Source: a virus
Taxonomy: Duplodnaviria; Caudoviricetes
DNA: 64,000 bases
IMG/VR virus record: IMGVR_UViG_3300031629_000002
Coordinates: 343-64,342 of that record
Strand: one strand, 5' to 3'
Shown: positions 2,689 to 31,799 of the stretch, one piece after another
How positions within the stretch are numbered: the stretch's first letter is position 1
How the letters are laid out: every line of letters starts with the position of its first letter
Translations under genes and position numbers: made by a program
Notes under the pieces: model-generated
Database searches by the model: none
What the model saw: only the letters and a program-made list of their open reading frames with translations
What the model was told of the DNA's origin: nothing

Positions 2689-2694
2689 TAAGCA

Positions 2695-4758: not shown

Positions 4759-4764
4759 TTGAAA

Positions 4765-5700
4765 TCACCTTTGCATTTGCTTGCGGAGCATAATATGTCC
4801 GATAGAATCGTGAATGCGTTCAGCCGAAGCGAACTTCATGTTTGTTGGTTGTCCACCAGCCGCACGCATTCCCATGTTTGTATTTGCTTGATTGAAGCGG
4901 TCAGTCTGTGCTGTGGCGGCTGTGTTTGCTTTGTTGCGGGCACCCATTCCTGTGGAACCCATACCGGCTGTTAAACCGCCTGTCATAACATCAGCGAACT
5001 TACCCATACCAGATCGATTCTTCATCCAAGACTGTTTGTCGCCGCCTTTTCCTGCTTGTAATGCTTGAGCGTCAGCACCAAAGGCCATAGTTTGGGCCGC
5101 TTCTTGCATTTTGTTTGGTGCGGCGGCGGCTGGTGCGGCGGCGGCTGGTGCGGCGGCTGGTGCGGCTGGCCCTGCTGGTGCGGCGGCGGCTGGTGCGGCG
5201 GCGGCTGGGAGTGGGACGGCGGCTGGCCCTGCTGGTGCGGCGGCGGCTGGGAGTGGGACGGCGGCTGGCCCTGCTGGTGCGGCGGCGGCTGGGAGTGGGA
5301 CGGCGGCTGGCCCTGCTGGTGCGGGAACTGGTGGGGTGAGGGTTGGTGCGTTTCCTTGTGTGAGAGCCGTCTGTTGCTCCCTTCCTCTTTCGGATTGGAG
5401 GTTTCTTACTTGATCATTAGCGTATTGATTTGCTGAACCACCTATTGCGGCTTGGGCGGAAGGTTCTGCGTTATTGAATGCCCTTTTGGCTTGACCTCCG
5501 GCCATTTTATCGCTTACTGTGTTTTTGACTTTTGATGCGGCACCAGCAACAGCACCGGGAGTATTTGCTATGGCGGCGGCAGTGGATGTAATGGCGTTGC
5601 CAACCTTGTCCATCCTTGCTCCTTTTTGAAAAGCCTCTCGTTCAGCAATCATTCTTGCTCTCGCCATTCGATCTGCACTAAACTCTCTTCTACTTACCAT
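4765..5700 (-). CDS. Ala/Pro/Gly-rich hypothetical protein with tandem repeat
   Basis: 311 aa ORF containing (PAAAAPAGPAAVPL)n; GGTGA SD-like motif upstream. Confidence 0.75.
   Translation of the reverse strand: MVSRREFSADRMARARMIAEREAFQKGARMDKVGNAITSTAAAIANTPGAVAGAASKVKNTVSDKMAGGQAKRAFNNAEPSAQAAIGGSANQYANDQVRNLQSERGREQQTALTQGNAPTLTPPVPAPAGPAAVPLPAAAAPAGPAAVPLPAAAAPAGPAAVPLPAAAAPAAAAPAGPAAPAAAPAAAAPAAAAPNKMQEAAQTMAFGADAQALQAGKGGDKQSWMKNRSGMGKFADVMTGGLTAGMGSTGMGARNKANTAATAQTDRFNQANTNMGMRAAGGQPTNMKFASAERIHDSIGHIMLRKQMQR
5117..5322. repeat. Coding tandem repeat (42-bp unit about x3, plus GCGGCGGCGGCTGGT subunits)
   Basis: Unit GCTGGCCCTGCTGGTGCGGCGGCGGCTGGGAGTGGGACGGCG is directly repeated. 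Confidence 0.9.
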
Positions 5701-7732
5701 TAAAAATCACCTTCACTAATTGTATGCAATCCAACGGGATGTCCATTGATTTGGACATCTCACGCCAGTCGCCCCTGCTGTTGAGGATAGCGACGACATC
5801 GGAAACGGGTCGTTGTATTTGACCTGCCATCATGGCAAGGTCTATTGCGTTGGATTGAATCATAGGGGTATGAGGAACTGCCTTTGCGATGGTTTCATCT
5901 TGCAGTGCTAATTGACATTGGACGGTTTCGAGCATGGACTCGATTTCTTCTTTTCCGAAGACATTTCCAGCATGTCCCGCACCTTTTCCGGTCATGTATG
6001 CAAGTTTATCAGCCATTCCTCTCCATCCTTCTCTAAACCGTGGCGGGCCGTCCTGCCGATTAGGCCCAGCAGGTTGCGCTTGAAAAGGGTTTAGGCGAGC
6101 AGGAGATTGTTCGGGTGGAATGTTTGGGGGTATTTGACCCACGGGTGCTGGTGGTGCTGGCTGTTGTAATCGCACTGGCGGTGCTGGTGCTTGGCGAGGA
6201 ACTGGTGGTGCTGGTGGTTGCTGTTGAATGACTGGCGGGGCAGGAGGCTGTGCCTGTTGCATTGGCGGTGAGGGTGCCGGTGCTGGTGGTATTACTGGGG
6301 CTGACCGAGTGTTGGGCGGATTTGGGCGATTCGCTCCACGGGCTTCGGCTCTCCGTTGGGCTTGAGCCTCCATTTGCCCTTGTAAGTCGTTTCTTGGTTG
6401 AGGTTGGGTTTGTCCTTCGTTTGGTTGAGGTTGCTGTGCTTGGGGTTGCATTCTATTTTGCGGAGGCTGAATACCCGGATGGTTCGATTGAAGGTGGCTG
6501 ATGAAACCGCTAATGAGGCGATCCGCCGCCGAGCCACCGGAACCTTGACCCATCAAATGTTCCATTGGAGGGAGGTCAGTCATGTTATACTTCTTACCTA
6601 AGTATTCATGGAGTTTAGGTAAGTAATGCCTCTTTGTAGTTCTTGCCCCGTTGTAAAGGTCTGTTCCCTTTTCGTTTTTGAATCCGTCTTCAAACCATGT
6701 GCTGTAAGCATCTGTTGGTGATTGAGGCATAACATTTGCTTCTTGCTGTTGTCCCTCAATCGCTTGCTGTGCCAAATCCGGTGCCGCATCGGCAACGATG
6801 CCCGGTGTTTCATTAGATTGGATGGATTCTCTTTGTCGGATTCCGTAAAGGTGCTGAATGTTCGTTTTGTTTTGAGGTGCGTAATTACTCAACACAGGGT
6901 GTCGAAGCCATGCTTCTTGAACCATTTCGGGTGTTAATTCCTGCCCGTTATTTTGAGCATGACGGGCTAATTCATTCACCATAGCAATACTGTGTTTCTG
7001 TGCTTCGTGATTGATATATACCCCGTTTGGGCGCACCTTGTCGGCTTTGATTGATTCGCTGGTGTTGCCCTTATGGCCTTGTTGCTCACGCACCCACTTG
7101 AGTCCTTCTTGGTATGGGCGATTCCATGACTCGTTCATTAGGTTCTCTTGATCACGGTTTCCTACACGCAATTTAGGAACACCGTGTGCGTCAAATTGCC
7201 AAGGGGTTTCTTTTTTCTGTGGCCCCCAAACACCTTCTCGCCACTGCTGTGTCAAGACAGAACGCCCTAAATCCGTGCTGAACGGTAGAGGAATGTCGTC
7301 GGGGATTTTGTCAAGCCCTTTTCCTGTCATACCTGCTTCATCTCGTTTTTGCGCCCAAAGGTGGTTTTGAACTTCAACAGCGTGGTTTATGTGCTTGCTA
7401 CCGATATTGATTGCTTTTTGGAGTGTGGCTTTGTATGTGTCTTCGTCGCCCTGCGGCCCCGCTTGAATAATTGCGGCTTCTTGAATTGTTAAGTGACTTG
7501 GATCTGATGGGTCAGCATTGTATATTGCTTCATAGACAGCATCGGCTTCTACACCAGTTAAGTGGTCGCCGGTAATATCACCCATAGGCATTGGGTAGGC
7601 TGTCAATTTGCCGTCTTCACCTATTTGTCCAATCAACCCGTTAATGAGTGCATCGAAGTCATAGAACCCCATACCCTTGTTAATGATAGTGCATCGGTCA
7701 AGAATGGCCCATGGTGTGCGTAGTAATGTCAT
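5690..7732 (-). CDS. Hypothetical protein with Pro/Gln-rich linker
   Basis: 680 aa ORF; ATGA overlap with the upstream gene. Confidence 0.75.
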   Translation of the reverse strand: MTLLRTPWAILDRCTIINKGMGFYDFDALINGLIGQIGEDGKLTAYPMPMGDITGDHLTGVEADAVYEAIYNADPSDPSHLTIQEAAIIQAGPQGDEDTYKATLQKAINIGSKHINHAVEVQNHLWAQKRDEAGMTGKGLDKIPDDIPLPFSTDLGRSVLTQQWREGVWGPQKKETPWQFDAHGVPKLRVGNRDQENLMNESWNRPYQEGLKWVREQQGHKGNTSESIKADKVRPNGVYINHEAQKHSIAMVNELARHAQNNGQELTPEMVQEAWLRHPVLSNYAPQNKTNIQHLYGIRQRESIQSNETPGIVADAAPDLAQQAIEGQQQEANVMPQSPTDAYSTWFEDGFKNEKGTDLYNGARTTKRHYLPKLHEYLGKKYNMTDLPPMEHLMGQGSGGSAADRLISGFISHLQSNHPGIQPPQNRMQPQAQQPQPNEGQTQPQPRNDLQGQMEAQAQRRAEARGANRPNPPNTRSAPVIPPAPAPSPPMQQAQPPAPPVIQQQPPAPPVPRQAPAPPVRLQQPAPPAPVGQIPPNIPPEQSPARLNPFQAQPAGPNRQDGPPRFREGWRGMADKLAYMTGKGAGHAGNVFGKEEIESMLETVQCQLALQDETIAKAVPHTPMIQSNAIDLAMMAGQIQRPVSDVVAILNSRGDWREMSKSMDIPLDCIQLVKVIFNGK

Positions 7733-9402
7733 CGCTTGCTGGCCCCCGCAAATGCGACCGGCATTAGCGTGGTGTCTTCAAACTTCCACCCTTTGAGGTT
7801 CTCGGTCGGGCCGGTTGGGGCACTGTTTCTTTCCTCACTTGCTTGACTTCCTCTCTTAGCGTCAGCGTCATGTTCGGGTGTTGCCTTTGTTAATTTTTCT
7901 ACGGCGGTAAGGAGTTTAGTCAATTGCTGTTTTAGTTTTTGGAGTTCGTTTAATTTGAAGCCACTGATGTCAGTTCCTCGGAGGCCAAGTTTGGCACCCT
8001 TCTCCATTTTCAAAGCGTCCCCACTAAGAGGGTCGTGTATTAGTGACCCTTCTCGGTCAGCGTTCTTTGGTTTTTTGAATGATGTGCCTTTGCTGGATGA
8101 AGGCTGTGAACCCATACGGGTTCCTCGCCCACTCATACCGATAGTTTGCACCTTTTCGCCAGTGATACCACGGGTGTCAGCGTGTGCCGACATTCCAGTA
8201 GGGAGTGACCCCATTTCACGGCGGAACTTCTCGGAGGCTAATTTGCGCTGGTAAGCAACAGGATCACGAAGACGCAAAGGCATATCCTTTGCCCGTGGGT
8301 TGCCACTAAACATACGGCGAGGTGCAAAGGCTTGACGCTTAGTATGGCGAGTGAGGTTCTGTTCAGTCGAAGCGGCACGGCGGGAGGTCTTGCTTTTTGG
8401 CTGACGGCTTGCTTCTTGCTTGCCTTTTTTGGCCTTGCGCCTTCGCTCTCGCTTATGCTTCTTTTTAGACTTCTTTTCATCCTCTTCGGATTCTTCATCC
8501 TCTTCATACTTACGCCCCTTTTTCTTTCGCTTTGATTTTGTAATATCGGAAATGAATACGGTGTCGGATGATGCTTGGATGTCTTTGTTCCAATCCTCCG
8601 GTAGTTCGCCAACCGGGGTAGGTGCGAACCATTTGAATGAATCTTCGGGCCAACCACCAAGCGGGTGAGGTATTTGTTCTTTGATTTTTTGTTGGGCTTC
8701 TAAGGCTTGATGTGGTTTTATGTCAGCCCCGGATGCGAAACCCGTTGATCTTGGCCCCATCATACCAGCGTCCCCTAATTCAATTAAGTCGTGAAGCATG
8801 TAGCCTTGAGAAGTTTTTCTTTCTTCGTCGGTCATATCTACCGCCCATTGGTCGTCCATCTGATCAGCCGACATTTGTTCCATGTCGGCAATCATCTCTT
8901 CTCTTGTTGGGAGGTCTTTGTCTCCATCGTTCTTCACCAACGACCAAGCGTCTTCAAATGCGTCGTTGCTACGACCGAATACCATTCCCGGCCCTTCACG
9001 CCGAACAGAACCAACGCTGGCACCGGCTGAAATACCCATACCGTTTCGATGGCCCATATCAACACCCATAGCCGATTCAAGCAATTCGCTTTCACCGTTC
9101 ACCATAGGTGTGTCATTTAGTGTTTCGGCCATTTCCTCCGCATGGATTGAAATGTGTGGGAGGTCGCCCTCCATCTCTTTGAGTGCTTTTTTGCGGCGTG
9201 TCGCCGGATCCATCTGTTCTCTTGTTTCATGTGAAGCCGCACCAAATTGGCTGATATGCGACAAACCGTCAGCATTTTCATTTGGGTTCACATCGTAATC
9301 GCCCATCATCTCACGGGGATTATGCCCTCCTGTGAACTCTTGAACCCGTATGGATGTATCATTGGGGTTAAGGTTGGGGGCTTGCGGGGGCATTTCAATC
9401 AC
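7729..9402 (-). CDS. Hypothetical protein with basic/acidic tracts and internal AFEDAWSLVK motif
   Basis: 557 aa; KSKRKKKGRKYEEDEESEEDEKKSKKKHKRERRRK block. Confidence 0.75.
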   Translation of the reverse strand: MIEMPPQAPNLNPNDTSIRVQEFTGGHNPREMMGDYDVNPNENADGLSHISQFGAASHETREQMDPATRRKKALKEMEGDLPHISIHAEEMAETLNDTPMVNGESELLESAMGVDMGHRNGMGISAGASVGSVRREGPGMVFGRSNDAFEDAWSLVKNDGDKDLPTREEMIADMEQMSADQMDDQWAVDMTDEERKTSQGYMLHDLIELGDAGMMGPRSTGFASGADIKPHQALEAQQKIKEQIPHPLGGWPEDSFKWFAPTPVGELPEDWNKDIQASSDTVFISDITKSKRKKKGRKYEEDEESEEDEKKSKKKHKRERRRKAKKGKQEASRQPKSKTSRRAASTEQNLTRHTKRQAFAPRRMFSGNPRAKDMPLRLRDPVAYQRKLASEKFRREMGSLPTGMSAHADTRGITGEKVQTIGMSGRGTRMGSQPSSSKGTSFKKPKNADREGSLIHDPLSGDALKMEKGAKLGLRGTDISGFKLNELQKLKQQLTKLLTAVEKLTKATPEHDADAKRGSQASEERNSAPTGPTENLKGWKFEDTTLMPVAFAGASKR

Positions 9403-9414
9403 TCACTATATGGG

Positions 9415-9741
9415 TTATCGTTTTGCTTCTTTAGCGGCTTGCATTCTCTTGAGTCGTTCTAATAAATCTGGATCTCTCGGCATCCCAGCATTGTTTGATG
9501 GGACGACATCGGGTCGCCCCGACGATGAAAGAACTCCGTCGAGTGAACCTTCTTTGGGTAGGTGTGGATTGTTTTTGACGATAGACCAGCCTGTGCTGAA
9601 TGCTCGGCCAAGAGATTTGGCGACTTTTTTAGCAGGGTCTTTTGTATTAGATTCACGCTTGCCGCCACATGCTATACACGGTTCTTCACCCATTCTCATA
9701 TGTGGACATCCCATGTCAAAGGTTTTCGTTGGTTCGGCCAT
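9415..9741 (-). CDS. Small Cys-containing protein with AFSTGWSIVK motif
   Basis: Start moved to MAEPTK (GGTGTGA SD-like motif upstream); CPH...CIAC. Confidence 0.65.
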   Translation of the reverse strand: MAEPTKTFDMGCPHMRMGEEPCIACGGKRESNTKDPAKKVAKSLGRAFSTGWSIVKNNPHLPKEGSLDGVLSSSGRPDVVPSNNAGMPRDPDLLERLKRMQAAKEAKR

Positions 9742-9746
9742 ATGTA

Positions 9747-10052
9747 TCACACCTTCCATGGGCACGGTGTCCCGGATTTCCACGCTAACCCCGGAGATCT
9801 GCCGCATTTTTTACACGATGCAGTAGTATCGTAGCCCGAATATGGCGGGGTTGTTACTTTTCCGCCACATTTTTTTCCTTCTTCTTTAATCACAGACCAG
9901 CCGACGCTGAACGCCTTTTCAACCCTATCCGGGTGCGGCTGAACATCTTGATAGCCGCATTCCGAATCGGGGCATCTCACCCATGTATCGTCAGTGCGAA
10001 CCATTTGTTTATCACAGTCGTTGCATAGTCCTATTTTGTCTTTCTTTGCCAT
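9747..10052 (-). CDS. Zn-ribbon protein with AFSVGWSVIK motif
   Basis: CNDC...CPDSEC...CKKC; TAATG overlap with the upstream stop. Confidence 0.7.
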   Translation of the reverse strand: MAKKDKIGLCNDCDKQMVRTDDTWVRCPDSECGYQDVQPHPDRVEKAFSVGWSVIKEEGKKCGGKVTTPPYSGYDTTASCKKCGRSPGLAWKSGTPCPWKV

Positions 10053-10480: not shown

Positions 10481-11041
10481 TCATCCCTCCATATCTTCGT
10501 CACAGTTTAAGCAATATCCCCAATAATTAGGGCCTTGCTTTGTTTTTTCCCTCTCACGCTTCAATTCCTGATCGCTCATACCTTGAAACCGACCTCCTTT
10601 TTCTGCTATTTCCTGTAAGTTATCTTCTTTTGTATCTATTTCCAACTCTTCGGATAGGCACATGGGGCAAGACCTTGGTGATTTTGATTTCACCACAGAC
10701 CAACCTGCGCTGAACGCTCGGTCAGTGGATGCTTTCTTAGAACCCCATTTCGGACGGCGGTTGCACTTTGAGCAATTATCATCACCGCACCCACCACCAC
10801 ATGAGGAACAATTACCTTGTCCACAGTAAGACCAATCTTTCTTGTCGCATTTGTCTTCACAATTCATTGTAGCACAAGCGGCCTTTTTCACGACAGGTTT
10901 GAAATCCTCTTCTCGTTCCATGTAACCGCATTTATTACAAACGAAATTAACATGACCTTCTTCTTCTCTTATCATGCCGCCATGTGGATTTCCACATTCG
11001 GGACACTCGACAGGCTCTCCAATAAATCTCGCTTCAACCAT
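10481..11041 (-). CDS. Cys-rich multi-Zn-ribbon protein with AFSAGWSVVK motif
   Basis: CPEC..CNKC, a Cys-rich middle, CPMC..CLNC; start MVEARF overlaps the upstream stop. Confidence 0.7.
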   Translation of the reverse strand: MVEARFIGEPVECPECGNPHGGMIREEEGHVNFVCNKCGYMEREEDFKPVVKKAACATMNCEDKCDKKDWSYCGQGNCSSCGGGCGDDNCSKCNRRPKWGSKKASTDRAFSAGWSVVKSKSPRSCPMCLSEELEIDTKEDNLQEIAEKGGRFQGMSDQELKREREKTKQGPNYWGYCLNCDEDMEG

Positions 11042-11744
11042 CTTCAAGAACCCCCGCATCGGCTAATGCTTTACGCATAACTCGCCACTCTTCCGGTGAC
11101 TTTTCGGAGAAGTGGGCCTGTATAACTGTCAAGACACTCACCTGCTCGTTAGAGCCGAGTGATTCGGCTTTAATTAGGTATTCGCTAATGTCGGTTAAAG
11201 TGTCACGAACTTCACGATGTAATTTCACTGCGGTGTCAAGACCCTTGTAATCAAGAGTTCCTGTTTCCTGCCGTTCCTCTTGCATCAGATCCAAGTGGTC
11301 GTTGAATAAGCCGTTAAGGCGTTGGAGGTTTCGTTCCGTCTGTGCCATAGCGGTGTGTGCGGTTTCGATGGCGGCTGGCAATACCTCCATATTCACTTGT
11401 CTTTGTATTACGGGTTGAGTGTGATGTTCGATATGTTGGGCGAGAGCCGTTTCGGTGACATCCAAATCCGTCGCCATATCGGCCATTCCAACAAGACCGT
11501 TGAGAATTGCCGCTTCAAGGTTGGCTCTTTCGGGGTGTGTGCATACAGGACATTCTGTATTGCTATTATTATGATACTCACCGGAATGACGCCTCATGTG
11601 GCGGTGTGCTGTTCCCTCCGCCCAGTCTTGGTTCAAATCCAATTCAAATACCTCAAGCAATCCAATACGGATTTGTTCTTCGTATCGATCTCTTGATTCA
11701 TGCTGACAAAAAGAGCAGTTTCTACGCACACGCCTCCCCGTCAT
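11034..11744 (-). CDS. Duplicated CxxCxH/HTH DNA-binding protein with coiled coil (candidate terminase small subunit)
   Basis: Two repeats, CSFCQHESR..G..HRHMRRH and CPVCTHPER..G..AQHIEHH, then a coiled coil. The TerS role is inferred from architecture and arm position. Confidence 0.55.
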   Translation of the reverse strand: MTGRRVRRNCSFCQHESRDRYEEQIRIGLLEVFELDLNQDWAEGTAHRHMRRHSGEYHNNSNTECPVCTHPERANLEAAILNGLVGMADMATDLDVTETALAQHIEHHTQPVIQRQVNMEVLPAAIETAHTAMAQTERNLQRLNGLFNDHLDLMQEERQETGTLDYKGLDTAVKLHREVRDTLTDISEYLIKAESLGSNEQVSVLTVIQAHFSEKSPEEWRVMRKALADAGVLEDG

Positions 11745-11771: not shown

Positions 11772-11975
11772 TCACTTTTGACTGTTTCGGCGGTGAGCAT
11801 TACAAAATAGGCCATCAATCATGTGCCAATTTTTACACGGTGTCCCGTCTTTCTTGACAGCCGCACATTTCAACGATTTGTGTTGAACGACGGGTTTCGG
11901 TGTGGGCACCACTTGTTCATACGCTGGTGGCGGCGAGGCGGAATAATTGCGCCCATCAATAGCGAAAGGATGCGT
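11772..11975 (-). CDS. Small CCCH Zn-finger protein (no ATG; ACG or internal GTG start)
   Basis: Hand translation: (T)HPFAIDGRNYSASPPPAYEQVVPTPKPVVQHKSLKCAAVKKDGTPCKNWHMIDGLFCNAHRRNSQK*. Confidence 0.55.
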   Translation of the reverse strand, partial: THPFAIDGRNYSASPPPAYEQVVPTPKPVVQHKSLKCAAVKKDGTPCKNWHMIDGLFCNAHRRNSQK

Positions 11976-12216
11976 ATTGTCGTATTGCTATAACGGAGGT
12001 AAGTATTAGACCGAAGAACATAGCCATTACTGCGCTTGTTCCCAAGGCTGGCCCTTTCCATACTAATACCACGAATGAGAAGAGAATGAATGCTATAATG
12101 TAGATCATCGTTGCACTTTCAACAAGTAGTTTCTTTGGACTTAATATGTCAATCGTGGCCGAAGACCATGATACTTCTGCGTTTATTGCTGGTTGATTTG
12201 GTTTTTCATTTGTCAT
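11956..12216 (-). CDS. Small two-TM membrane protein
   Basis: Two hydrophobic helices, MIYIIAFILFSFVVLVW and AVMAMFFGLILTSVIAI; GAGGTGA SD. Confidence 0.75.
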   Translation of the reverse strand: MTNEKPNQPAINAEVSWSSATIDILSPKKLLVESATMIYIIAFILFSFVVLVWKGPALGTSAVMAMFFGLILTSVIAIRQYASFRY

Positions 12217-12227
12217 TGTTCATCACC

Positions 12228-12896
12228 TCAAAGGACTGTTCCTGCTTTAGCGGCCATATTGACCCCGTGTCCCATAGTAGCACCAAAGCCACCTTGGCCT
12301 TGAACTGCGTTGCCCATCATTCCACCAAGCATACTACCGAAGAATCCCGGCTGTTGCTGTTGTTGCATCATCTGTGATTGCATAGAACCTTGCTGATGTG
12401 CGGCAAGGAACATTTGTAATTGCTGTTGATTGGTGTTTAGAACATTCTGTGCCGACGATTGAACCTTTTGTAGTGTCAAGGCGAGATTTTCCGGTGACAT
12501 TGTTTGGAGTTCATTTGGCATAGAAGAAGCATCGAGGGTCATTTTGTTATCCTCGATTTTGAATGAAACATTATTGAAGAACTCTTTGATTGATAATTGG
12601 ACAATTTCTCCTACTAAGTCTAAAACCAAAGCCATGTTATTGCTGACTACAAACGCTGACATTGGGTCATACATACCAAGTAATTGAGATGTTGCTACAA
12701 TTGGATCGTTGGCGGCCTGTTGCATCATAGGGTTGTTTGCTTGTTGCATCATCCCAAGTCCTCCACCCATTCCCATTGGCTGTTGTTGTCCGTAGCCCAT
12801 CATGTTCTGTTGTCCGTAGTTTTGCTGTGCGGCCAAAGAAGGGGCACCAAATTGCTGTGTCGTTTGCGGTTTATTTCCAAATCCAAATAGTCCCAT
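12228..12896 (-). CDS. Gln/Gly/Met-rich protein
   Basis: Begins MGLFGFG with Q/M-rich termini; AGGTGA SD before the ATG at 12896. Confidence 0.75.
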   Translation of the reverse strand: MGLFGFGNKPQTTQQFGAPSLAAQQNYGQQNMMGYGQQQPMGMGGGLGMMQQANNPMMQQAANDPIVATSQLLGMYDPMSAFVVSNNMALVLDLVGEIVQLSIKEFFNNVSFKIEDNKMTLDASSMPNELQTMSPENLALTLQKVQSSAQNVLNTNQQQLQMFLAAHQQGSMQSQMMQQQQQPGFFGSMLGGMMGNAVQGQGGFGATMGHGVNMAAKAGTVL

Positions 12897-12906
12897 TATT
12901 CTCACC

Positions 12907-13812
12907 TTATTGTTGTGCCATCATTGGCTCTTGGGGCACCATGGTGCCTTGCATGTCTTGAGGGGAAACGCCCATCATAGATTGTTGTTGCGCCATCTGT
13001 TCCAATTGCATGGCTCTCATATCGAAGGTCACAGTCACCAGATCAGCAACACCAGTAATTGGGTTTGCGTGTTGTGTCAAGGAGACACCCTTTGAGTATT
13101 GAGCGTCCTTTTGAATCATTTGGAAAAAAGTGCCATACTTTGCTAATGACTCCGGTGTGGAACGGTTTTTTGCTTGACTTCTATTCAAACCCGGAACCTT
13201 CAAGAAACGGGTTCCTTTTGACACCGCCTTGCCGAATCCCTCGTTTTCCATCTCATGTTCCTCGACCATACAATACAGTGTATGGAATATGTGAAGGTGT
13301 GCTGGACATAGTGTGCTGTTCATTTCGTCGCCGTGATCGCCGTGTGTTCGGGCGTGTGGCTTGCGAGCCTGTCCCGAATCCTCGTCAAACCAATAGATGT
13401 CGGCTAAAGACAAACCTGTCTTTTCATCAACAATGTGGTTGTATGCGTTGTCTCCTTCAAGGAAACGGCGCACATCAACACCACAGCAAGAGCATTCATG
13501 TGCGGCATTGTAGCGGTAGATTTTGAATAAGCCCAAATTGTAGTTTGGAGGGCGTAGTGCCTTTCTCATTTTCTTAATGTTCTTTTTACGGGCTTTGCGT
13601 GGATTATTGACATTGGTGACAAGTTTCAATTCGACAGTGGGGATGAGGGCTTCTCCTTCTACTCCACCAGTGGAACCTGCGGTTGCCATCTCGGCTCGCT
13701 GTTGGGTCTTTAACATAGCAAACGAAACACCAGTATGTGCGGCAAGTATTTTCAACTCTTCGTCACTTAAGCCGTTTAATGTAATACCGCCGCCGAATGG
13801 ATTAAGCCTCAT
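12907..13812 (-). CDS. Hypothetical protein with putative Zn-binding Cys/His residues
   Basis: HECSCCG ... LCPAHLH; GGTGA SD. Confidence 0.75.
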   Translation of the reverse strand: MRLNPFGGGITLNGLSDEELKILAAHTGVSFAMLKTQQRAEMATAGSTGGVEGEALIPTVELKLVTNVNNPRKARKKNIKKMRKALRPPNYNLGLFKIYRYNAAHECSCCGVDVRRFLEGDNAYNHIVDEKTGLSLADIYWFDEDSGQARKPHARTHGDHGDEMNSTLCPAHLHIFHTLYCMVEEHEMENEGFGKAVSKGTRFLKVPGLNRSQAKNRSTPESLAKYGTFFQMIQKDAQYSKGVSLTQHANPITGVADLVTVTFDMRAMQLEQMAQQQSMMGVSPQDMQGTMVPQEPMMAQQ

Positions 13813-13867
13813 GTTTCATCACCGCCTATGACCCTGTGAGGACTGACAACATGAAAAGGATTCCCCT

Positions 13868-14593
13868 TCACATCATGTCAATAGTCCGTATAACGCCAGC
13901 CTCCACATTTAGTCCATATTGAGCCGCCATAGCCTCGACATTGGTCGCTATTGCCGCCCTTCTCAAGCGTCTCATATCTGTTTGAAAGGGCATAACCATA
14001 GGATGTTGGCGTTTCAAACCCAAGTCCCACATTTGCTGACATTCGTTAGTCCACCACAGATCCATTTTATTCAACACTAAACACACTACCTTTGGTTTGT
14101 AGTTCTTTGCTTGTTTCTTCATAGAGCGTGTAAATGTTGAGGGGAACCTATGATTGACTATAATGTCTGTAAGGTATTTGAAACCAGCAACCGCTTCTTG
14201 CATAGCGGGTTCCGACCATCCTACCCTATCATCCACCACGAAAAAGACAATGGAAGCGTTTCTATTGAGCATGTCTTCGGCCCACATGTTCCAGTATTGG
14301 GATTGTCCCCCGATGTCGGTTGTAGAAATAGGAACCCTTTCTCCCTTCCACCGCACTTGTTTCTTTGAACCGTGTGGCATTAGGTATGACCCGTTCTTAA
14401 CAGGGTGTGTAGTTCTCAATTCCAATGGGATTGGGTCGATGTCACCGGGAACAGTAAGGTATTGGTCGAGTGTTGTCTTACCGGCCAAAGAAGGGCCGTA
14501 AATGGCTACTCTATGAGGCCGTAGCAAACGATAGACATAGGCGGCTATTTGAGCCGACCCCATCAATAGGTGTCCTGCAAACATCCAAGACAT
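13868..14593 (-). CDS. Small Ras-superfamily (Arf/Rab-like) P-loop GTPase
   Basis: G1 GPSLAGKTT, G2 candidate RTT, G3 DIGGQ (followed by SQYWNMW), G4 NKMD, G5-like AMAAQYGLNVE; hydrophobic/amphipathic N-terminal helix. Confidence 0.85.
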   Translation of the reverse strand: MSWMFAGHLLMGSAQIAAYVYRLLRPHRVAIYGPSLAGKTTLDQYLTVPGDIDPIPLELRTTHPVKNGSYLMPHGSKKQVRWKGERVPISTTDIGGQSQYWNMWAEDMLNRNASIVFFVVDDRVGWSEPAMQEAVAGFKYLTDIIVNHRFPSTFTRSMKKQAKNYKPKVVCLVLNKMDLWWTNECQQMWDLGLKRQHPMVMPFQTDMRRLRRAAIATNVEAMAAQYGLNVEAGVIRTIDMM

Positions 14594-14598
14594 TCACT

Positions 14599-14820
14599 TC
14601 ACTTCCCCCTGATCCATTCCCAAACGCTTGTTGGGTTTATGGAGAGCCATGTGTCCATTCCAAGTAGTATGAAGAAGGTTAAGGCCATTCCGCCAAGAAA
14701 GGCTAAGGCTGTTTTCACAGACCAAGCGGCTCTTTCCATCCTTCGATCATATGCGTTCTCGGCAAGAATGGCTGACATCGCTTCGGCTTGTCGTTCTTGT
14801 TGTGTGTTGAAAGGCCACAT
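14599..14820 (-). CDS. Single-TM membrane protein
   Basis: Hydrophobic segment ALAFLGGMALTFFILLGM. Confidence 0.7.
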   Translation of the reverse strand: MWPFNTQQERQAEAMSAILAENAYDRRMERAAWSVKTALAFLGGMALTFFILLGMDTWLSINPTSVWEWIRGK

Positions 14821-14835
14821 GGGTTTCCCTCACTA

Positions 14836-15312
14836 TCACTGTGCTGGTTCTTCCTTTTTGGGTTCTTCGGTGTTTGGTAGCCCGAATGTCTGTTGAGAAG
14901 GATCATTCCACGCCTGTTGCTTATACATTTGCGATTCTTGGCTCATGTTGTAGTCTTTTCGAGAACGACGCTGTTGTAGTCTTTGTTGGTTACGGTGCCA
15001 CTTGTCATAGCGACCTTCTTGAGAGAACTCGGCTCGTAGTGCAAGGGAGTCACGAATACCCCCAACATGGAATAAAACCATAGAGATACAAAGGAAACCG
15101 AATGCTATAAGCCCGTATTGAAGACCCATCTCACCGGGGCTTGCTCCCGGTAGATACCATTGTAGATGCGATATTGTTACCGAAACGCCAGTTAAGAGTG
15201 ATTGCCATAATAACATAGCAATCAAATTGATGTCGATCCGGTTATTGTCGTCGCCGCCGTTGTTGGCCCACGGAGGCATCTGTGCAGGTTGGGGTGCGTT
15301 TGGGGCTTGCAT
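14836..15312 (-). CDS. Two-TM membrane protein with basic coiled-coil tail
   Basis: LIAMLLWQSLLTGVSVTI and YGLIAFGFLCISMVLFHV; TAATG overlap with the upstream RHH gene. Confidence 0.75.
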   Translation of the reverse strand: MQAPNAPQPAQMPPWANNGGDDNNRIDINLIAMLLWQSLLTGVSVTISHLQWYLPGASPGEMGLQYGLIAFGFLCISMVLFHVGGIRDSLALRAEFSQEGRYDKWHRNQQRLQQRRSRKDYNMSQESQMYKQQAWNDPSQQTFGLPNTEEPKKEEPAQ

Positions 15313-15458
15313 TACTGTTCATCTCCATTTTTCTTTTTATTTTCAAAATACTCCTTAAGTATGAAACACACGAAGGATGACTTCGATTCCCGACCTCTTG
15401 CCGCTTCTACTTTAGCGAACAAATCGTCGGGCATAACTACTGATACATGACGGCTCAT
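15312..15458 (-). CDS. Ribbon-helix-helix (CopG-like) regulator, 48 aa
   Basis: Below the ORF-track cutoff. MSRHVSVVMPDDLFAKVEAARGRESKSSFVCFILKEYFENKKKNGDEQ fits the RHH pattern (VSVxxPDDL..V.....SKSSFV...L). Confidence 0.75.
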   Translation of the reverse strand: MSRHVSVVMPDDLFAKVEAARGRESKSSFVCFILKEYFENKKKNGDEQ

Positions 15459-15526
15459 GTATGTATGCCAGTAGTGTTAGGGCTATGAAGGTTATGATTA
15501 TGAACATGGTGGGCGTGGGGGTTCAC

Positions 15527-16036
15527 ATGACGACCCCAAATGTGCCGGACGCTGTGACCGCTATGCGCTCATATCAATATGTTGTAAATGCCTCACCGAA
15601 CAGCAGTTCTCTCCTTTCTTCGTGGATCCAACGCCACACCGATGAGTCCTTAGCCGCCGACTTTGACTATAAAGCGGCAATCGCAGTGTTGGCGTATTTC
15701 AACCACCCACTTTACACTACTACTACGAACCAACCAACAGGCACAGCCGCATGGGTTTCACTGATGAATGGGGCCGAAAGCATACTTCAAGCCGAGGCGT
15801 CATGGATAGACGACCAATTACTTATTGCCAACATCACACGCCCACAGCGTTTGTTCGATAGCGACATCACTTGGTTGAGCCAGTGGGCGGCGGCAAACAA
15901 TGTGTCGGCTAATACCGAAACCGCATACTTGCTGAACTCTTTGATTCTTCAATTACAAATCTGTGAAGGAACTAATGGTGCTACAAATGCGTCCAGTGTT
16001 TCACACACTGTTCACACATCACCGACAGTCCCTTAG
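15527..16036 (+). CDS. Hypothetical protein, divergent from the RHH/GTPase operon
   Basis: Likely start MTTPNVP; fills the gap between minus-strand genes; stop overlaps the convergent gene. Confidence 0.6.
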   Translation: MTTPNVPDAVTAMRSYQYVVNASPNSSSLLSSWIQRHTDESLAADFDYKAAIAVLAYFNHPLYTTTTNQPTGTAAWVSLMNGAESILQAEASWIDDQLLIANITRPQRLFDSDITWLSQWAAANNVSANTETAYLLNSLILQLQICEGTNGATNASSVSHTVHTSPTVP

Positions 16037-18060
16037 AGAATATCGTTCAACCGTTGCTGGTCGAGGTTGATTGGGAATAAAGGCTTCATGTTTTTATCGT
16101 AGTCGATGTTGCCGCCAGTTTTCAAACGCACTTGTTGGTTTTTGCTTCCAGCGATATGAGGGTTATATGAAACAGGTTTGTCACCCCAACATGCTTCGCA
16201 GTTATGATCCATACACGAACCACCCGCTATTGATACAGGGCAAATGTGTGTTCCGGGGGTGTCTTCGGCTCCAACGAACGAAGCGGTGACATTGGGATGT
16301 TCTGTCGCTTGTTGGAATGCCGATGATAATTTGGGTAGGCCCAATTCTTGGTTTCGGTCATTATCGGCCCCTTGACCGACAAACGGTGCGCTCAATGAAA
16401 CAGACAGGTTGTCGGGTATGGCGGTGTCATAGTCCCTGCCACTTGATTGAAGGAACATGTTCAGTGCTTGGGCTTCACGGGTAGGCAACCATGCCCTACT
16501 TTTCAAAGGACTCTTTGCACCTATTGTTCTCATGGTATCGGAGAGAAGGGAGAGATGTTTGGCTTTGTCTTCACTTGTTTTACCTTGTAAATCACCCGAC
16601 TCAAAGAAGCGGAATAAATCGGTTCCGTGGTCTAACACTGATGAGGACATCCTATTCCCCAAAGCCGAACCATAGCGAACCATGTCTTCGATGTTTTCGG
16701 GAGTCCTCAAAGCGATGGCGTTTCGCCAATTGGCTATTTGTTTTTGATTCATAGACGCACGACCATGATCGTGAGCATAACAGTTCTCACAGGTAGCACC
16801 TGCAACCTCTCTCATTTTACTACCGACACCACACATGTGAGTAGGGAAGTTTTGATGCGCTCCGGGCATTTTTGAATTATCACCCAATGGGCTACCTATT
16901 GTTCTTTCAGCCTGTTGTTTCATATTCCCGCCTTGTATCAGTGTTCTAAAATCGGGAAAGTAGTCGTCTATTCCTTCAAGGGGATAGTTCACATTGAAGT
17001 CTGTGTCGAATTGGTCGGTCTTATCTTTGTTCGCTTCGACCCAATTGAAAACATCACGCCCGTGACCCGGCCCCTTTCCGCTTTGGTTCAACCTTTTGTC
17101 CCACCAACCTATTTCACCGGGATCTCCCAGTGCTTTGATGAGAACCTCACCAAGACTGAATAATGAATCACTTCGTCGGACAACATTGGTGAAATCTATG
17201 CCCTTTGGAAAATACATACCGTGTGGGGTGACAATACCCGTATTACCATCGAAGCGTGTTCCCTGTCCAATAGGTATTGGTTCGGCCATTTCACCAACAG
17301 GGCCAGCAGGGAGCATGGCGAAATCACCAGTTCCCGATATTTGATGAGGTAATGGTCGGCCCATGTGTTCCGTTTGAGTTTTACTTCTTCGCCCGAACAG
17401 TGGGTGTATTCCCAAGTCCTTGTGATCCTCGACAGGTTCTTCCTTTACATCATCCCGATAAACGATATTACCTTGTTCATCATGGTAAAATGGGCGGTAT
17501 GTCACCAAGTCGGCTTGCCAGCCCTCTTCATCAAGAACTCTTGCGTTGCCGTTGGCGTCCATTTCCACATCATAATTATGGACATCTTGGGGTAGTTCGT
17601 CGCCTAAAAGGTATTGTTGGGATTCGGAAACATCAAGCCGACCGGAAATCGGGGCGTGTAATGTGCGACCCGGCCCCCTTGCTGGCAGTTTTCTTTCGCC
17701 CTCCCTCCAACGCTTATTGCCATGCAAAGCGTCACGCTGTGAGTTTCGATCAACAGACACCATAGGATCATGTATAGGAACCTGTGAAGCGACTTCGGTG
17801 CTTACAGGCGCACCCCCTCCAACAAGCCTTCGTTGAACCGCCATCATACCCGGCCCTCTCTTAGCGGGGTCTTTTGGATCCGATGGGAACTCATCAAAGT
17901 GTTCGGGCCTTAGACCCGGAGGCAAACGCAAATCACGACCCGGTGATGCTTGACTTATGTTGCGAAAGGAGGCGATAGAGTCGTCTTTTGGAACATTACC
18001 TGCGGCGTCTTCTTTCTTACCACGGGCGGTATATTTCCAGTCAAACGGCCCTGTCATCAT
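16033..18060 (-). CDS. Protein with C-terminal Gp88-like (putative Fe-S) domain
   Basis: SKMPG..C....CENCYA...FRFFESGD..WLPTRE..PDNL..CP....C...CEACW....Y.PH matches the phage gene-product-88 family pattern as I recall it; start at 18060 overlaps the upstream stop. Confidence 0.7.
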   Translation of the reverse strand: MMTGPFDWKYTARGKKEDAAGNVPKDDSIASFRNISQASPGRDLRLPPGLRPEHFDEFPSDPKDPAKRGPGMMAVQRRLVGGGAPVSTEVASQVPIHDPMVSVDRNSQRDALHGNKRWREGERKLPARGPGRTLHAPISGRLDVSESQQYLLGDELPQDVHNYDVEMDANGNARVLDEEGWQADLVTYRPFYHDEQGNIVYRDDVKEEPVEDHKDLGIHPLFGRRSKTQTEHMGRPLPHQISGTGDFAMLPAGPVGEMAEPIPIGQGTRFDGNTGIVTPHGMYFPKGIDFTNVVRRSDSLFSLGEVLIKALGDPGEIGWWDKRLNQSGKGPGHGRDVFNWVEANKDKTDQFDTDFNVNYPLEGIDDYFPDFRTLIQGGNMKQQAERTIGSPLGDNSKMPGAHQNFPTHMCGVGSKMREVAGATCENCYAHDHGRASMNQKQIANWRNAIALRTPENIEDMVRYGSALGNRMSSSVLDHGTDLFRFFESGDLQGKTSEDKAKHLSLLSDTMRTIGAKSPLKSRAWLPTREAQALNMFLQSSGRDYDTAIPDNLSVSLSAPFVGQGADNDRNQELGLPKLSSAFQQATEHPNVTASFVGAEDTPGTHICPVSIAGGSCMDHNCEACWGDKPVSYNPHIAGSKNQQVRLKTGGNIDYDKNMKPLFPINLDQQRLNDIL

Positions 18061-19226
18061 TGTCCCCCCTGTTTCAGCACAGCCCACCCTTGTTCAAAGG
18101 CGTTTTGGGGTTCGGAGAGTTCAAAGTCCAATAATGCTGTCTGTGAACCTTCTTTCGGGAGGAACTTACCGTAGCCGTAGGTCTGCAATAATTGATTGAT
18201 AGAATGACCGTCAAAGTCGTCCACATTCGCAACACCTATCATTTCGGGTTTGGGGCCACGCTTTTCGGGGTTTCCCGATACATTATCGGGGCGTTGAATG
18301 ACGGTAGTGTCAAGGCCAATATCCTTGTATTGTTCGATGGGGTCGATACTGTCAAAGGCCAATACAGGCTGGCCTTCTTGTATTCTTTCCTCTAATTGGC
18401 GGAACATCTGTCTTGGATCGAAACCCTCACCGTAAGTGCCGGGTTGCCCCGAATAAGGAGGGTCATTGATAACTCCTGCTTTATTGTCAATATCCCATTC
18501 GGCCAGTGCTTCGGCACCATCGCCTTGGCGCACATTCACATTTTTGAGAGGTTCCCTGTAATTCAACAGGTTTTCCATTGAGGGTAAGGATTGCATGGTT
18601 TTGACATCGGGTGGGTTGCTCGGCCACAGCATTCCTTCGTGTTCATTACCAACTTTGTTATGGCGGATTTGTCCCACATGTCCCGCACGCTTATTGCGAA
18701 AAAGGTTGAGTGCTTGGGCAAGGCGCATAGACTCGGAGCGTGGTTCACCATCTCTCATCAATGTATCATAATAAGCCAAGGTATCGGGGGGGACAGCATC
18801 TCCACGCTTTCTTTCAGTGACATTCGGGCCTCTTATTTGTGTTCTCCAATGGTCTTTCAATTGTTGATCGTTTAGACCCTGCAACATACTCCAATCAATG
18901 TCAATACCTTGTGTTCCTTGATTAGACATGGCCTCAACCAAAGCGGCGGTTCCGGCATCCATTTCATTGTAGTCGCTCGAACCCTGTGGCAAAATGTTGA
19001 GTATGTCATTAGCAGGGCCGCCATAGGGAACTTGTAGGCCATCAATACCGGCTTTATCGGCAAAGTTCCTTTGAACCATCCTATAATGTGGTTTATTTTT
19101 GGAGCCAGTGTGTCGAACGATGGGTGCCATACCTTTAGCACCCGACATGTCGGCACGCATAGCGGCCATTTCGGCGGCGTCAATACGGCGACCTGTGCGG
19201 TGTCCCTTGTATCTCGGCAAAACCAT
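18057..19226 (-). CDS. Dam-like (D12-class) DNA adenine methyltransferase, divergent
   Basis: PIVRHTGSK (cf. LKWAGGK), VPYGG (cf. EPFxG), catalytic INDPPY; C-terminal AFEQGWAVLK motif. Confidence 0.7.
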   Translation of the reverse strand: MVLPRYKGHRTGRRIDAAEMAAMRADMSGAKGMAPIVRHTGSKNKPHYRMVQRNFADKAGIDGLQVPYGGPANDILNILPQGSSDYNEMDAGTAALVEAMSNQGTQGIDIDWSMLQGLNDQQLKDHWRTQIRGPNVTERKRGDAVPPDTLAYYDTLMRDGEPRSESMRLAQALNLFRNKRAGHVGQIRHNKVGNEHEGMLWPSNPPDVKTMQSLPSMENLLNYREPLKNVNVRQGDGAEALAEWDIDNKAGVINDPPYSGQPGTYGEGFDPRQMFRQLEERIQEGQPVLAFDSIDPIEQYKDIGLDTTVIQRPDNVSGNPEKRGPKPEMIGVANVDDFDGHSINQLLQTYGYGKFLPKEGSQTALLDFELSEPQNAFEQGWAVLKQGGQ

Positions 19227-31299: not shown

Positions 31300-31799
31300 T
31301 CCCAATCACCCTCACTTTCTGTTAATGAACGGTGGTATTGCTCCCCTTGAGCGTGCCCTAATTCCATACCCTCCGATGAACGACCTTGCTCAACGAACAA
31401 ATCCCACGGCGATACACCATCCGGGCAACGGTGACGGTTCTCCCAACCGGCCATTTCGTTGTCATAGTCCTCATCGGGAGCAAGTCCGTGAATGAGATGG
31501 CGTTTCGGCGGCTCATCCAAATGTCGATGGCTCAAACCATCCGTTAGATTTTCAGCGCACCTCTCGCATATTGTTTCCGAGGTTCCCCGACCACCCACTT
31601 GACTTGGGTTTGTTTCCCCAGTAGGGGTCGCTGTATCGGGCTTGTGGCTATCCTTATCAAAATGAGGATAAAACGAAGTAAAGTCAAGGCTAAACAGCCC
31701 ACCGTCTTGTTCCATCCCTGCAACAGTGTCGGGAATGTGACCGTAAGGCGCAAAAGTAGATGACTTCACAATGCTCCAAGCCATTTCAAAAGCACTCAT
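31296..31799 (-). CDS. Signal-motif hypothetical protein
   Basis: MSAFEMAWSIVK-S; CERC...HRC. Confidence 0.7.
   Translation of the reverse strand: MSAFEMAWSIVKSSTFAPYGHIPDTVAGMEQDGGLFSLDFTSFYPHFDKDSHKPDTATPTGETNPSQVGGRGTSETICERCAENLTDGLSHRHLDEPPKRHLIHGLAPDEDYDNEMAGWENRHRCPDGVSPWDLFVEQGRSSEGMELGHAQGEQYHRSLTESEGDWE

Follow-up and report, generated by a model that had tools for sequence, protein, structure and literature searches.

What does a small GTPase do in a tailed virus of archaea, and why would it be encoded among small membrane proteins? The question is raised by a stretch of viral DNA of 64,000 nucleotides (hereafter the window; positions 343 to 64,342 of the IMG/VR virus record IMGVR_UViG_3300031629_000002), in which eight open reading frames (ORFs) on the minus strand, numbered g1 to g8 from position 15458 down to 11772, include a gene for such a protein (g4). 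This cassette is a conserved unit, and the GTPase gene belongs to the core of the virion arm in magroviruses. Judged by its sequence, the GTPase belongs to a separate, virus-only family of the extended Ras superfamily. The hallmarks of this family are of Arf/Sar type: its members begin with a helix, have xAGKTT and DxGGQ...W, and lack a lipid anchor at the C-terminus.

The window is a fragment of a group-A magrovirus, a tailed virus whose hosts are the abundant marine archaea of Marine Group II, because its gene set, and the thermosome above all, fits the published description; the available text of that description assigns the tailed, thermosome-bearing group A magroviruses to Marine Group II (Poseidoniales) archaea (PMC5434244). 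The source record comprises 64,342 bases of an IMG/VR virus, with a completeness estimate of 61%. Besides the group II chaperonin (thermosome, PF00118, E 9e-166), the window encodes a family-B DNA polymerase, an RFC-like AAA ATPase, a PD-(D/E)XK nuclease, a PAPS reductase, a UvrD-like helicase and a large terminase (TerL). A minus-strand arm extends from ~32.7 kb down to base 1 with TerL at its end, and the replication genes lie on the plus strand from 33.7 kb. The cassette is located in the TerL (virion) arm, ~9 kb upstream of TerL, and the thermosome gene lies in the same arm.

The way in which tailed archaeal viruses disrupt the cell envelope is described as completely uncharacterised in the accessible part of a 2024 review (PMC10791045). 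Magrovirus hosts are uncultured. No published account of a small GTPase of a magrovirus or Marine Group II virus was found, although such an annotation could sit in supplementary tables. Among the matches listed for 'archaeal virus' together with 'small GTPase', no title or abstract start concerned a virus-encoded GTPase of tailed archaeal viruses, and a GTPase is not mentioned in the main text of the magrovirus and archaeal-virus papers searched by term. As a conserved, core and virus-only set of genes, the cassette is a concrete, clonable candidate for envelope disruption or another form of membrane takeover, and in vitro testing is feasible without a cultured host.

Motifs and predicted fold of the GTPase

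On its motifs and modelled fold, the product of g4 (13868-14593, minus strand; 241 aa) is a genuine small GTPase. The motifs named in the preliminary description of the locus are all present, namely the G1/P-loop GPSLAGKTT (residues 33-41; 14471-14497), the G3/switch II segment DIGGQSQYWNMW (residues 93-104; 14282-14317), the guanine-specificity motif NKMD (G4; residues 175-178; 14060-14071) and AAQYGLNVE (near residues 221-229). Their conservation was counted in 71 distinct GTPase proteins from 80 viral loci, which are the best 80 of 261 IMG/VR stretches encoding a relative of the GTPase, each taken with 6-kb flanks. G1 (GxxxxGK[ST]) and NKxD are each found in 71/71 relatives, and G1, DxxG and NKxD follow one another in the order of the Ras superfamily (TRAFAC). 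G33, G38, K39, D93, G96, N175 and K176 are invariant in the alignments. The switch II consensus of the family is DIGGQxQFRNLW, with W in place of R in the window protein; a tryptophan stands eleven residues after the DxxG aspartate (D+11) in 70/71, and the residue following DxxG is Gln in 49 of the 71, Asp in 10, Glu in 8, His in 3 and Arg in 1. Given these retained motifs, the protein is predicted to be competent for nucleotide binding.

From residue 100 onwards the AlphaFold model of the GTPase is good (mean pLDDT of the whole model 73.5), and at this level of confidence it has a predicted G-domain fold. When the model was compared with 48,161 PDB representatives (VIA), 127 chains matched at Z >= 8, and small GTPases were found at Z 12.5-10 over 124-178 aligned residues. 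The top matches were LokiRagO from an Asgard archaeon (12.5), Arf6 and Arl8 (12.2), Sar1, Gs-alpha and Arl2 (12.0) and SR-beta (11.7), followed by Der and EF-type GTPases (11.5-10.5) and Rab (~10), these values being largely tied. Foldseek returned GTPases only, at E around 1e-3.

The model begins with a helix (residues 2-24) that stands directly ahead of strand 1. The corresponding segment of the sequence (residues 2-25; 14519-14590) is hydrophobic to amphipathic, and the N-terminal 26 residues are uncharged to basic, without any acidic residue. Across 44 members the helix has a mean hydrophobic moment of 0.49, a mean hydrophobicity of 0.16 and a best 19-residue Kyte-Doolittle window of 1.19. 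The most distant member (P0156), for which a search for the viral contig yielded none, has a frankly hydrophobic N-terminus. No transmembrane (TM) segment above the hydropathy threshold was found in the GTPase.

The family is narrow. A word-indexed search at E <= 0.001 yielded 98 clusters; their lengths span 132-422 aa, with almost every one at about 241-246 aa, and some come from contigs of 97-117 kb. Exhaustive phmmer over 1.84 billion representatives gave only 62 matches at E <= 0.001. Of the 13 phmmer matches scanned against Pfam, none reached the Arf or Ras family cut-off. One phmmer match of 1462 aa (P0140) is a repeat protein with unrelated domains and was dismissed. The impression that small GTPases are rare in tailed viruses fits these searches: neither the GTPase nor g5 has a tblastn match in 50,697 GenBank phage records, and the GTPase has no match in PHROGs below E 0.079.

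Family assignment

The locus had been described as encoding an Arf/Rab-like GTPase, and the two parts of this label fared differently. Resemblance to Arf holds for the N-terminal helix and the DxGGQ...W switch II, but it does not extend to membership of the Arf family. In Pfam, the window protein gave sub-threshold matches only, to Ras (14.7 bits) and to Arf (13.3 bits, E 0.059, against a PF00025 cut-off of 22.3). Within the family, Arf was matched at E < 0.1 by 27/44 members (best 1.3e-4) and Gtr1_RagA by 7/44 (best 3.4e-6). Among solved structures, the family profile matched 8oun_A best, at E 3.1e-6 with the initial alignment (A1) and 7.2e-9 with a broader one (A5), and the aligned region starts within the N-terminal helix of that protein. 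This entry is full-length GerdArfR1-GDP, an Asgard Arf-related protein, as stated in the accessible part of its report (bioRxiv 10.1101/2024.02.28.582541). The next matches were Arl8 (Arl8A, 1.6e-5) and Rab33B (5e-4); matches to a RecA concatemer and to EF3/ABC covered the P-loop only (16-44 residues) and were dismissed.

The Rab part of the label was not upheld. Neither the C-terminal Cys lipidation motif nor the DTAGQE-type switch II of Rab and Ras proteins is seen: a cysteine within the last six residues is present in 0/71 members. When the viral profile (HMM) was run on a panel of 26 small GTPases from one Asgard metagenome-assembled genome (MAG), every Ras/Rab-like protein scored 12.8 bits or less, against 27-30 for three canonical Arf-like proteins, 27 for the protein L092 and 46 for a divergent protein (L091).

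The phylogeny that had been proposed as a check was run as two maximum-likelihood trees with references from Asgard archaea and the archaeal GTPase ArvA only. The viral clade (SH-aLRT 90 and 75) lies apart from ArvA and from both the Arf and the Ras/Rab clusters. Profile-profile comparison with hhalign was rejected as a classifier, given that the Rab-like control set (score 90) scores as high as or above the Arf sets (core 64, long 57), with ArvA at 64-91 and L091 at 76. The hhalign probabilities of 97% therefore show only common GTPase ancestry, because the control does not discriminate. The viral proteins are filed as a separate family because the Pfam cut-off is missed, the trees place them outside and hhalign is non-discriminating. 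This placement also weakens the proposed link to the spread of eukaryote-like GTPases and, as the viral family does not branch within Arf, says little about where eukaryotic Arf came from.

Conservation of the cassette

The eight minus-strand ORFs of the preliminary description are all present, with the predicted numbers of TM segments (hydropathy gives 2, 1 and 2 for the proteins of 158, 73 and 86 aa), and the GTPase indeed lies within a membrane-protein operon. From g1 to g8 the intergenic gaps are -1, 15, 5, 55, 1, 11 and 43 nt, the stop of g3 thus standing 5 nt ahead of the GTPase start, and several starts are preceded by GGTGA-type Shine-Dalgarno-like motifs. Gaps of -1 to 55 nt indicate co-expression. 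A look-up of sequencing runs gave 11, all of them contig sets of marine metagenome DNA and two perhaps from the source sample, with no RNA run among those listed. The string runs on beyond g8 with g9 (11034-11744) and a further minus-strand ORF (10481-11059), at gaps of 27 and -26 nt.

The expectation that the operon is conserved as a unit was borne out, with fixed synteny. Gene order is constant across all 13 patterns observed (80/80 viral loci, some of them cut by contig ends), and the neighbours of the GTPase are conserved at 40-89% identity. Since relatives of the GTPase occur in 261 IMG/VR stretches and its neighbours are conserved, the ORFs are not chance frames. With the window proteins as tblastn queries, matches were found in 80 of the 80 loci for g4 and g5, 79 for g9, 68 for g6, 53 for g3, 52 for g7, 51 for g1 and g2, and 8 for g8. 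After three profile rounds the counts rose to 80 for g6, 79 for g7, 78 for g2 and 51 for g8, and stood at 80 for g4 and g5, 79 for g9, 53 for g3 and 51 for g1. In addition, seven divergent loci without a g3 match have an ORF of ~80 aa in the g3 position, which aligns with g3 through invariant F4, N22 and W67.

A scan of 185,579 species genomes yielded only six loci, all with g2, g4 and g5 and five also with g6, g7 and g9, and the gene order was the same in 6/6. One of them lies on a 106-kb contig from a single-cell assembly of Poseidoniales (G001), which fits the assigned host. The others occur in MAGs titled Parvibaculum, Maricaulis, Flavobacteriales and Promethearchaeati, where the cassette contigs are read as viral and look like binning errors. 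Of 19 TerL-bearing relatives chosen at >= 46 kb, 18 were searched, and 13 of these carry the GTPase, including 5/5 at >= 90% completeness; the five without it are fragments, 44-75% complete.

A branch at ~30% identity (L207, L210 and L086) retains g2, an ORF in the g3 position, g4, g5 and a G/Q/N-rich ORF at the g6 position in 3/3 loci, with g5 overlapping g4 by 4 nt, while g7 and g9 were undetected in these three. Because this distant branch keeps g2 to g6 without detectable g7 or g9, the evolutionary core consists of five genes.

These results bear on one explanation of the cassette, in which its products are accessories of virion morphogenesis or packaging, that is, assembly factors for head, tail or DNA-packaging steps at the membrane. 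This is considered unlikely, although several features speak for it. The cassette stands in the TerL arm at the distance from TerL given above, and the viral thermosome in that arm indicates that the virus invests in assembly helpers. Furthermore, the gene that follows the cassette in 79/80 loci, g9 (236 aa), has paired cysteines (CxxC...CxxC; C10, C13, C65 and C68 invariant in its alignment, A4), a helix-turn-helix (HTH) segment that matches the GerE HTH (PDB 1fse, E 0.0071, residues 66-112) and a coiled coil. Small terminases often have HTH and coiled-coil features of this kind, and g9 may resemble a small terminase or act as a late regulator. On the other hand, g9 and g7 were not detected in the distant branch, so that the GTPase core is separable from g9. 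Three conserved partners are integral membrane proteins and the N-terminus of the GTPase is of membrane type, and neither is known to be required for the assembly of tailed viruses.

Partner proteins

The partners are described here in the order of the string, all on the minus strand. The first protein, g1 (15312-15458; 48 aa), had been called a ribbon-helix-helix (RHH) regulator. Its sequence pattern fits, with an HVSVVM strand followed by an RGRESKSSF turn and with H4, V5, S6, E18, R21, G22, K26 and S27 invariant in its alignment (A11), and by eye it is compatible with the strand-helix-GxSxS-helix pattern of ribbon-helix-helix proteins. Profiles did not confirm it: RHH_5 was matched by 2/21 members at E 0.054, and no PDB match was found below E 0.9. 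The second, g2 (14836-15312; 158 aa), has two TM segments, at residues 30-48 and 68-86, along with a coiled segment of basic character and an FG(L)P motif towards the C-terminus. It is present in 78/80 loci, 6/6 genome-collection loci and 3/3 distant-branch loci. A conserved N-terminal MWPF helix and one TM segment (residues 37-55) characterise g3 (14599-14820; 73 aa).

Downstream of the GTPase, g5 (12907-13812) is an orphan of 301 aa with a basic helix (KARKKNIK), invariant Cys and His residues and a Q/M-rich tail. The putative Zn binding of the earlier label has its only basis in the invariant C107, C169, H172, H174 and H177, and a reading of CxxC...CPxHLHxxH by eye as an HNH or treble-clef motif was dropped for want of profile support. 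Its model (pLDDT 67.9) gave no fold match at Z 5, the best being homeodomain-like helices at Z 4.5 over 46 residues (VIA), and nothing in BFVD at E <= 0.001. By sequence there was no PDB match at E <= 5 and no Pfam lead, and matching of Atlas features reached 0.77, under the lead level. A predicted complex of the GTPase with g5 scored 0.01 against a mark of 0.32 and, made without controls, is evidence neither way. The adjacent g6 (12228-12905; 225 aa) has an MG(W/L)F motif at its N-terminus and an ordered centre of ~100 aa; Q makes up 15.6% of its residues, G 12% and M 10.7%. It had PDB matches only at E >= 0.65, and its Atlas model (pLDDT 0.45) gave no TM-score above 0.34. An HpaP match at E 0.042 was sub-threshold and was ignored.

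The string is completed by g7 (11956-12216; 86 aa), with two TM segments (residues 34-52 and 61-79), and by g8 (11772-11912; 46 aa), its least conserved member. Earlier described as a Zn finger, g8 is a Cys-containing, basic protein, and its profile matches are sub-threshold only (DUF5763 and zf-primase, both E 0.001). Aromatic-Gly/Pro motifs recur at the ends of the cassette proteins, at the N-termini of g3 and g6 (MWPF, MGW(L)F), near the C-terminus of g2 (FG(L)P) and at the N-terminus of g5 (PFxGGG). These motifs may be shared docking peptides.

The composition of the partners bears on an explanation in which the cassette is an SR-beta-like targeting device, with a membrane-anchored GTPase and Met/Gln-rich partners that insert or sort small viral membrane proteins as a delivery route private to the virus. 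The substrate-binding regions of SRP54, Get3 and Sgt2 are Met/Gln-rich, as are the g5 tail and g6, and the layout of g3 is tail-anchor-like. SR-beta is also among the top structural matches of the GTPase (Z 11.7 and 10.8), and the Pfam family SRPRB was matched by 7/44 members at E 0.021 or above. These signals nevertheless lie within 1 Z unit of Arf, Sar1 and Rag and are sub-threshold in sequence, no partner resembling SR-alpha or SRX was recognised, and the Met-rich analogy is one of composition only. Such a device is rated very improbable.

Occurrence in host-order genomes

Cellular counterparts of the cassette were sought in the order of the Poseidoniales single-cell genome G001; the genomes are samples and incomplete, so that absence means not found in those searched. 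The viral family profile gave two matches in 201 genomes of the order, one being the viral contig of G001 and the other a 32-position P-loop match at E 0.006. The comparison with ArvA requires some background: ArvA (OapA) is a small GTPase of Haloferax with an N-terminal amphipathic helix that drives the formation of extracellular vesicles, and arvA shares its operon with arvB (DUF2073) and with arvC, which encodes a Zn-ribbon protein, ArvABC being found in Euryarchaeota and DPANN, according to the accessible text of its description (PMC10927574). OapB/ArvB was found in 0/61 host-order genomes against 74/151 in the phylum, with positive Haloferax and Methanosarcina controls. The ArvA profile matched 1/101 host-order genomes, partially and at E 2e-4, and had no match to the viral gene in G001 at E <= 0.001. 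These counts suggest, at the level of sequence searches, a lineage-specific loss of ArvABC in magrovirus hosts. The Pfam Arf model was unsuitable as a genome probe, since it is unspecific in six-frame searches and matched 9/14 control genomes, including E. coli. With neither a homologue of the GTPase nor ArvA/ArvB in the sampled host-order genomes, the virus would supply the switch itself.

It is on this background that a takeover of the membrane other than for egress has to be weighed, whether superinfection exclusion, masking of receptors, a membrane-bound site of replication or assembly, or vesicles, with the cassette as a viral substitute for ArvABC. The membrane-linked anatomy of the cassette serves this explanation as well as it serves egress. 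ArvA/ArvB, not found in the sampled host order, are common elsewhere in the phylum, and ArvA controls vesiculation, according to the accessible part of its description (PMC10927574). Speculatively, the low-complexity, Q/G/M-rich g6 could form a condensate or coat. However, g5 is unrelated to ArvC and ArvB (hhalign probabilities of 1.0% and 0.1%), and no cassette protein has a Pfam match to OapB (PF09846) or OapC. Exclusion systems are usually variable accessory genes, while the cassette is present in all five near-complete relatives and deeply conserved. Takeover for such ends is regarded as a minor possibility.

Possible role of the cassette

The preliminary description had suggested a machine for membrane remodelling, egress or lysis, or superinfection exclusion. 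By analogy with cellular GTPases, the cassette may be a membrane-anchored GTP switch of the virion arm, most likely for egress or membrane remodelling, and this is put forward tentatively as the leading explanation. With GTP bound, the GTPase would push its N-terminal helix into the cytoplasmic membrane of the host, with g2, g3 and g7 marking the sites, a mechanism proposed by analogy with Arf, Sar1 and ArvA. The GTPase could then recruit g5 and g6, and the assembly would bend, vesiculate or breach the membrane, after which GTP hydrolysis would reset the switch; in lineages without the catalytic Gln, hydrolysis may need a partner. The favoured role would be the release of progeny virions from a host without a peptidoglycan wall. 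Egress is favoured because it is a late-arm, universally kept function and because the accessible text of the 2024 review describes the egress machinery of tailed viruses of archaea as uncharacterised (PMC10791045). The link to the membrane is supported by the helical N-terminus without acidic residues and by neighbours with 2, 1 and 2 TM segments (g2, g3 and g7).

Several observations weigh against an egress switch of this kind. The N-terminal helix is under the TM threshold and only borderline amphipathic, and the catalytic Gln is missing in 22/71 members. The model is poor at residues 48-95 (switch I and interswitch, pLDDT below 50-55), so that an Arf-type toggle is unreadable from it. No lytic or S-layer-degrading enzyme was recognised in the cassette with Pfam or PHROGs, and g5 and g6 resemble nothing known, which makes their roles as effectors guesses. 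The position in the virion arm suits a role in assembly equally well, and the function, timing, membrane binding and GTP hydrolysis of the cassette are inferred only. Egress, assembly, other membrane takeover and SR-beta-like targeting are not separated by the present computations.

A more ambitious form of the egress switch can be drawn from the five-gene core. In this form, the core would be a self-contained, GTP-switched membrane-deforming machine and the long-sought egress system of archaeal tailed viruses, working as a minimal coat or vesiculation system that resembles Sar1/COPII or ArvABC in its logic but has unrelated parts. Argued by analogy, it seems rather doubtful. If true, the virus would be introducing the machine to hosts of an order that yielded no such small GTPase.

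Other genes of the window

Some further features of the window may be recorded. Just upstream of the cassette, 16033-18087 (minus strand) encodes a Cys-rich protein of 684 aa, conserved in 37-41/80 loci, with a Pfam GP88 match of 24.7 bits, barely above the cut-off of 24.4 bits. Between this gene and the cassette, an ORF of 191 aa on the opposite strand (15461-16036, plus) is divergent from g1, conserved by tblastn in 26/80 loci and without a family match in Pfam or PHROGs. Only 2 nt separate its first ATG from the start of g1, and the true start is probably a downstream Met codon.

Between the cassette and TerL, the AT skew at 2001-10000 is strongly negative (-0.24 to -0.31) over large minus-strand ORFs, stronger than in the rest of the window, and four proteins encoded there (687, 311, 680 and 557 aa) had no Pfam or PHROG match at E <= 0.001. 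Elsewhere, a protein with an HMGL-like (pyruvate carboxyltransferase-type) domain is encoded at 31796-32686 (minus strand, E 3.3e-19) and one with a PAPS-reductase domain at 57760-58719 (plus strand, E 6.4e-15). Both may merit attention given the statement, in the accessible part of the 2017 paper, that magroviruses showed no auxiliary metabolic genes (PMC5434244).

Comparison with known systems

The small TM proteins of the cassette recall phage holin/endolysin lysis cassettes, but a hydrolase domain was found in no cassette protein with Pfam or PHROGs; for holins themselves a universal profile does not exist.

Another virus-encoded small GTPase is the Rab of mimivirus, a giant virus (PDB 5XC5; fold match Z 10.0). 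The mimivirus protein is clearly a Rab and was taken up from a eukaryotic host. The present family differs in its Arf-type motifs, its lack of a C-terminal Cys (0/71) and its archaeal host, in which no homologue was found.

The nearest non-viral relative is L091, a divergent Asgard small GTPase of 216 aa (L091:1486-2136, plus strand) in a MAG titled Promethearchaeati (G002). Among cellular proteins it gave the family profile its highest score (46 bits; hhalign 97.2%, E 3.5e-11, 141 columns). It shares the basic insert before G4 (RKARK...NKVDL) and joins the viral clade as its sister (SH-aLRT 90 and 77), although its branch is very long (2.2-2.6) and the sister position may be long-branch attraction. 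It exceeds the Pfam Arf cut-off with 38.4 bits, a score to be read in light of the matches of that model in 9/14 control genomes. L091 differs from the viral proteins in lacking a long N-terminal helix and in its G3 motif (DCPGD), and its locus has no cassette neighbours among ORFs of at least 120 aa. An acidic-repeat protein of 305 aa with a Cys cluster is encoded next to it.

ArvA resembles the viral protein in being a small GTPase that starts with an amphipathic helix and in having a gene for a Cys-containing protein downstream in its operon, as far as the accessible text of its description goes (PMC10927574). Seven arvA-arvB-arvC loci from the phylum of G001 served as the reference, and their ArvA homologues share RIGIYGPxxAGKTTL and the switch I motif IPxExR[TR] with the viral family. 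They score 21-27 bits against the viral HMM and 96-98% probability in hhalign, a level equal to that of the Rab-like control. ArvA has DTPGIATK where the viral family has the DxGGQ...W switch II, and its clade (support 95) is separate from the viral clade, with a joining branch of only 77. Furthermore, the ArvABC operon is described, in the accessible text, without TM partners (PMC10927574), which the viral cassette has.

The last comparison is with the Arf family. The G-domain fold is common to both, with Z 12.2 for Arf6 and Arl8, 12.0 for Sar1 and 10.8 for HodArfR1 (8OUL), and GerdArfR1 (8OUN/8OUM) is the best solved sequence match of the viral profile, with the N-terminal helix aligned. The xAGKTT P-loop and the N-terminal helix right before strand 1 are also common to both, and Asgard Arf-like proteins, with a switch II of DVAGQxxFRFLW, have Trp at D+11 as does the viral family (DxGGQ, 70/71). 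In contrast, the viral GTPase falls below the Pfam Arf cut-off and outside the Arf cluster in the trees, has a region from switch I to strand 3 that is longer by ~30 residues, a basic insert before G4 and Ser rather than Gly at residue 2, and no Sec7-type or ArfGAP-type partner was recognised among the cassette proteins in the Pfam scan. In a virus whose host order yielded neither this family nor ArvA/ArvB in the genomes sampled, the GTPase appears to present the N-terminal-helix switch logic of small GTPases, a logic whose other known examples are eukaryotic Arf and Sar1, Asgard ArfR and euryarchaeal ArvA.

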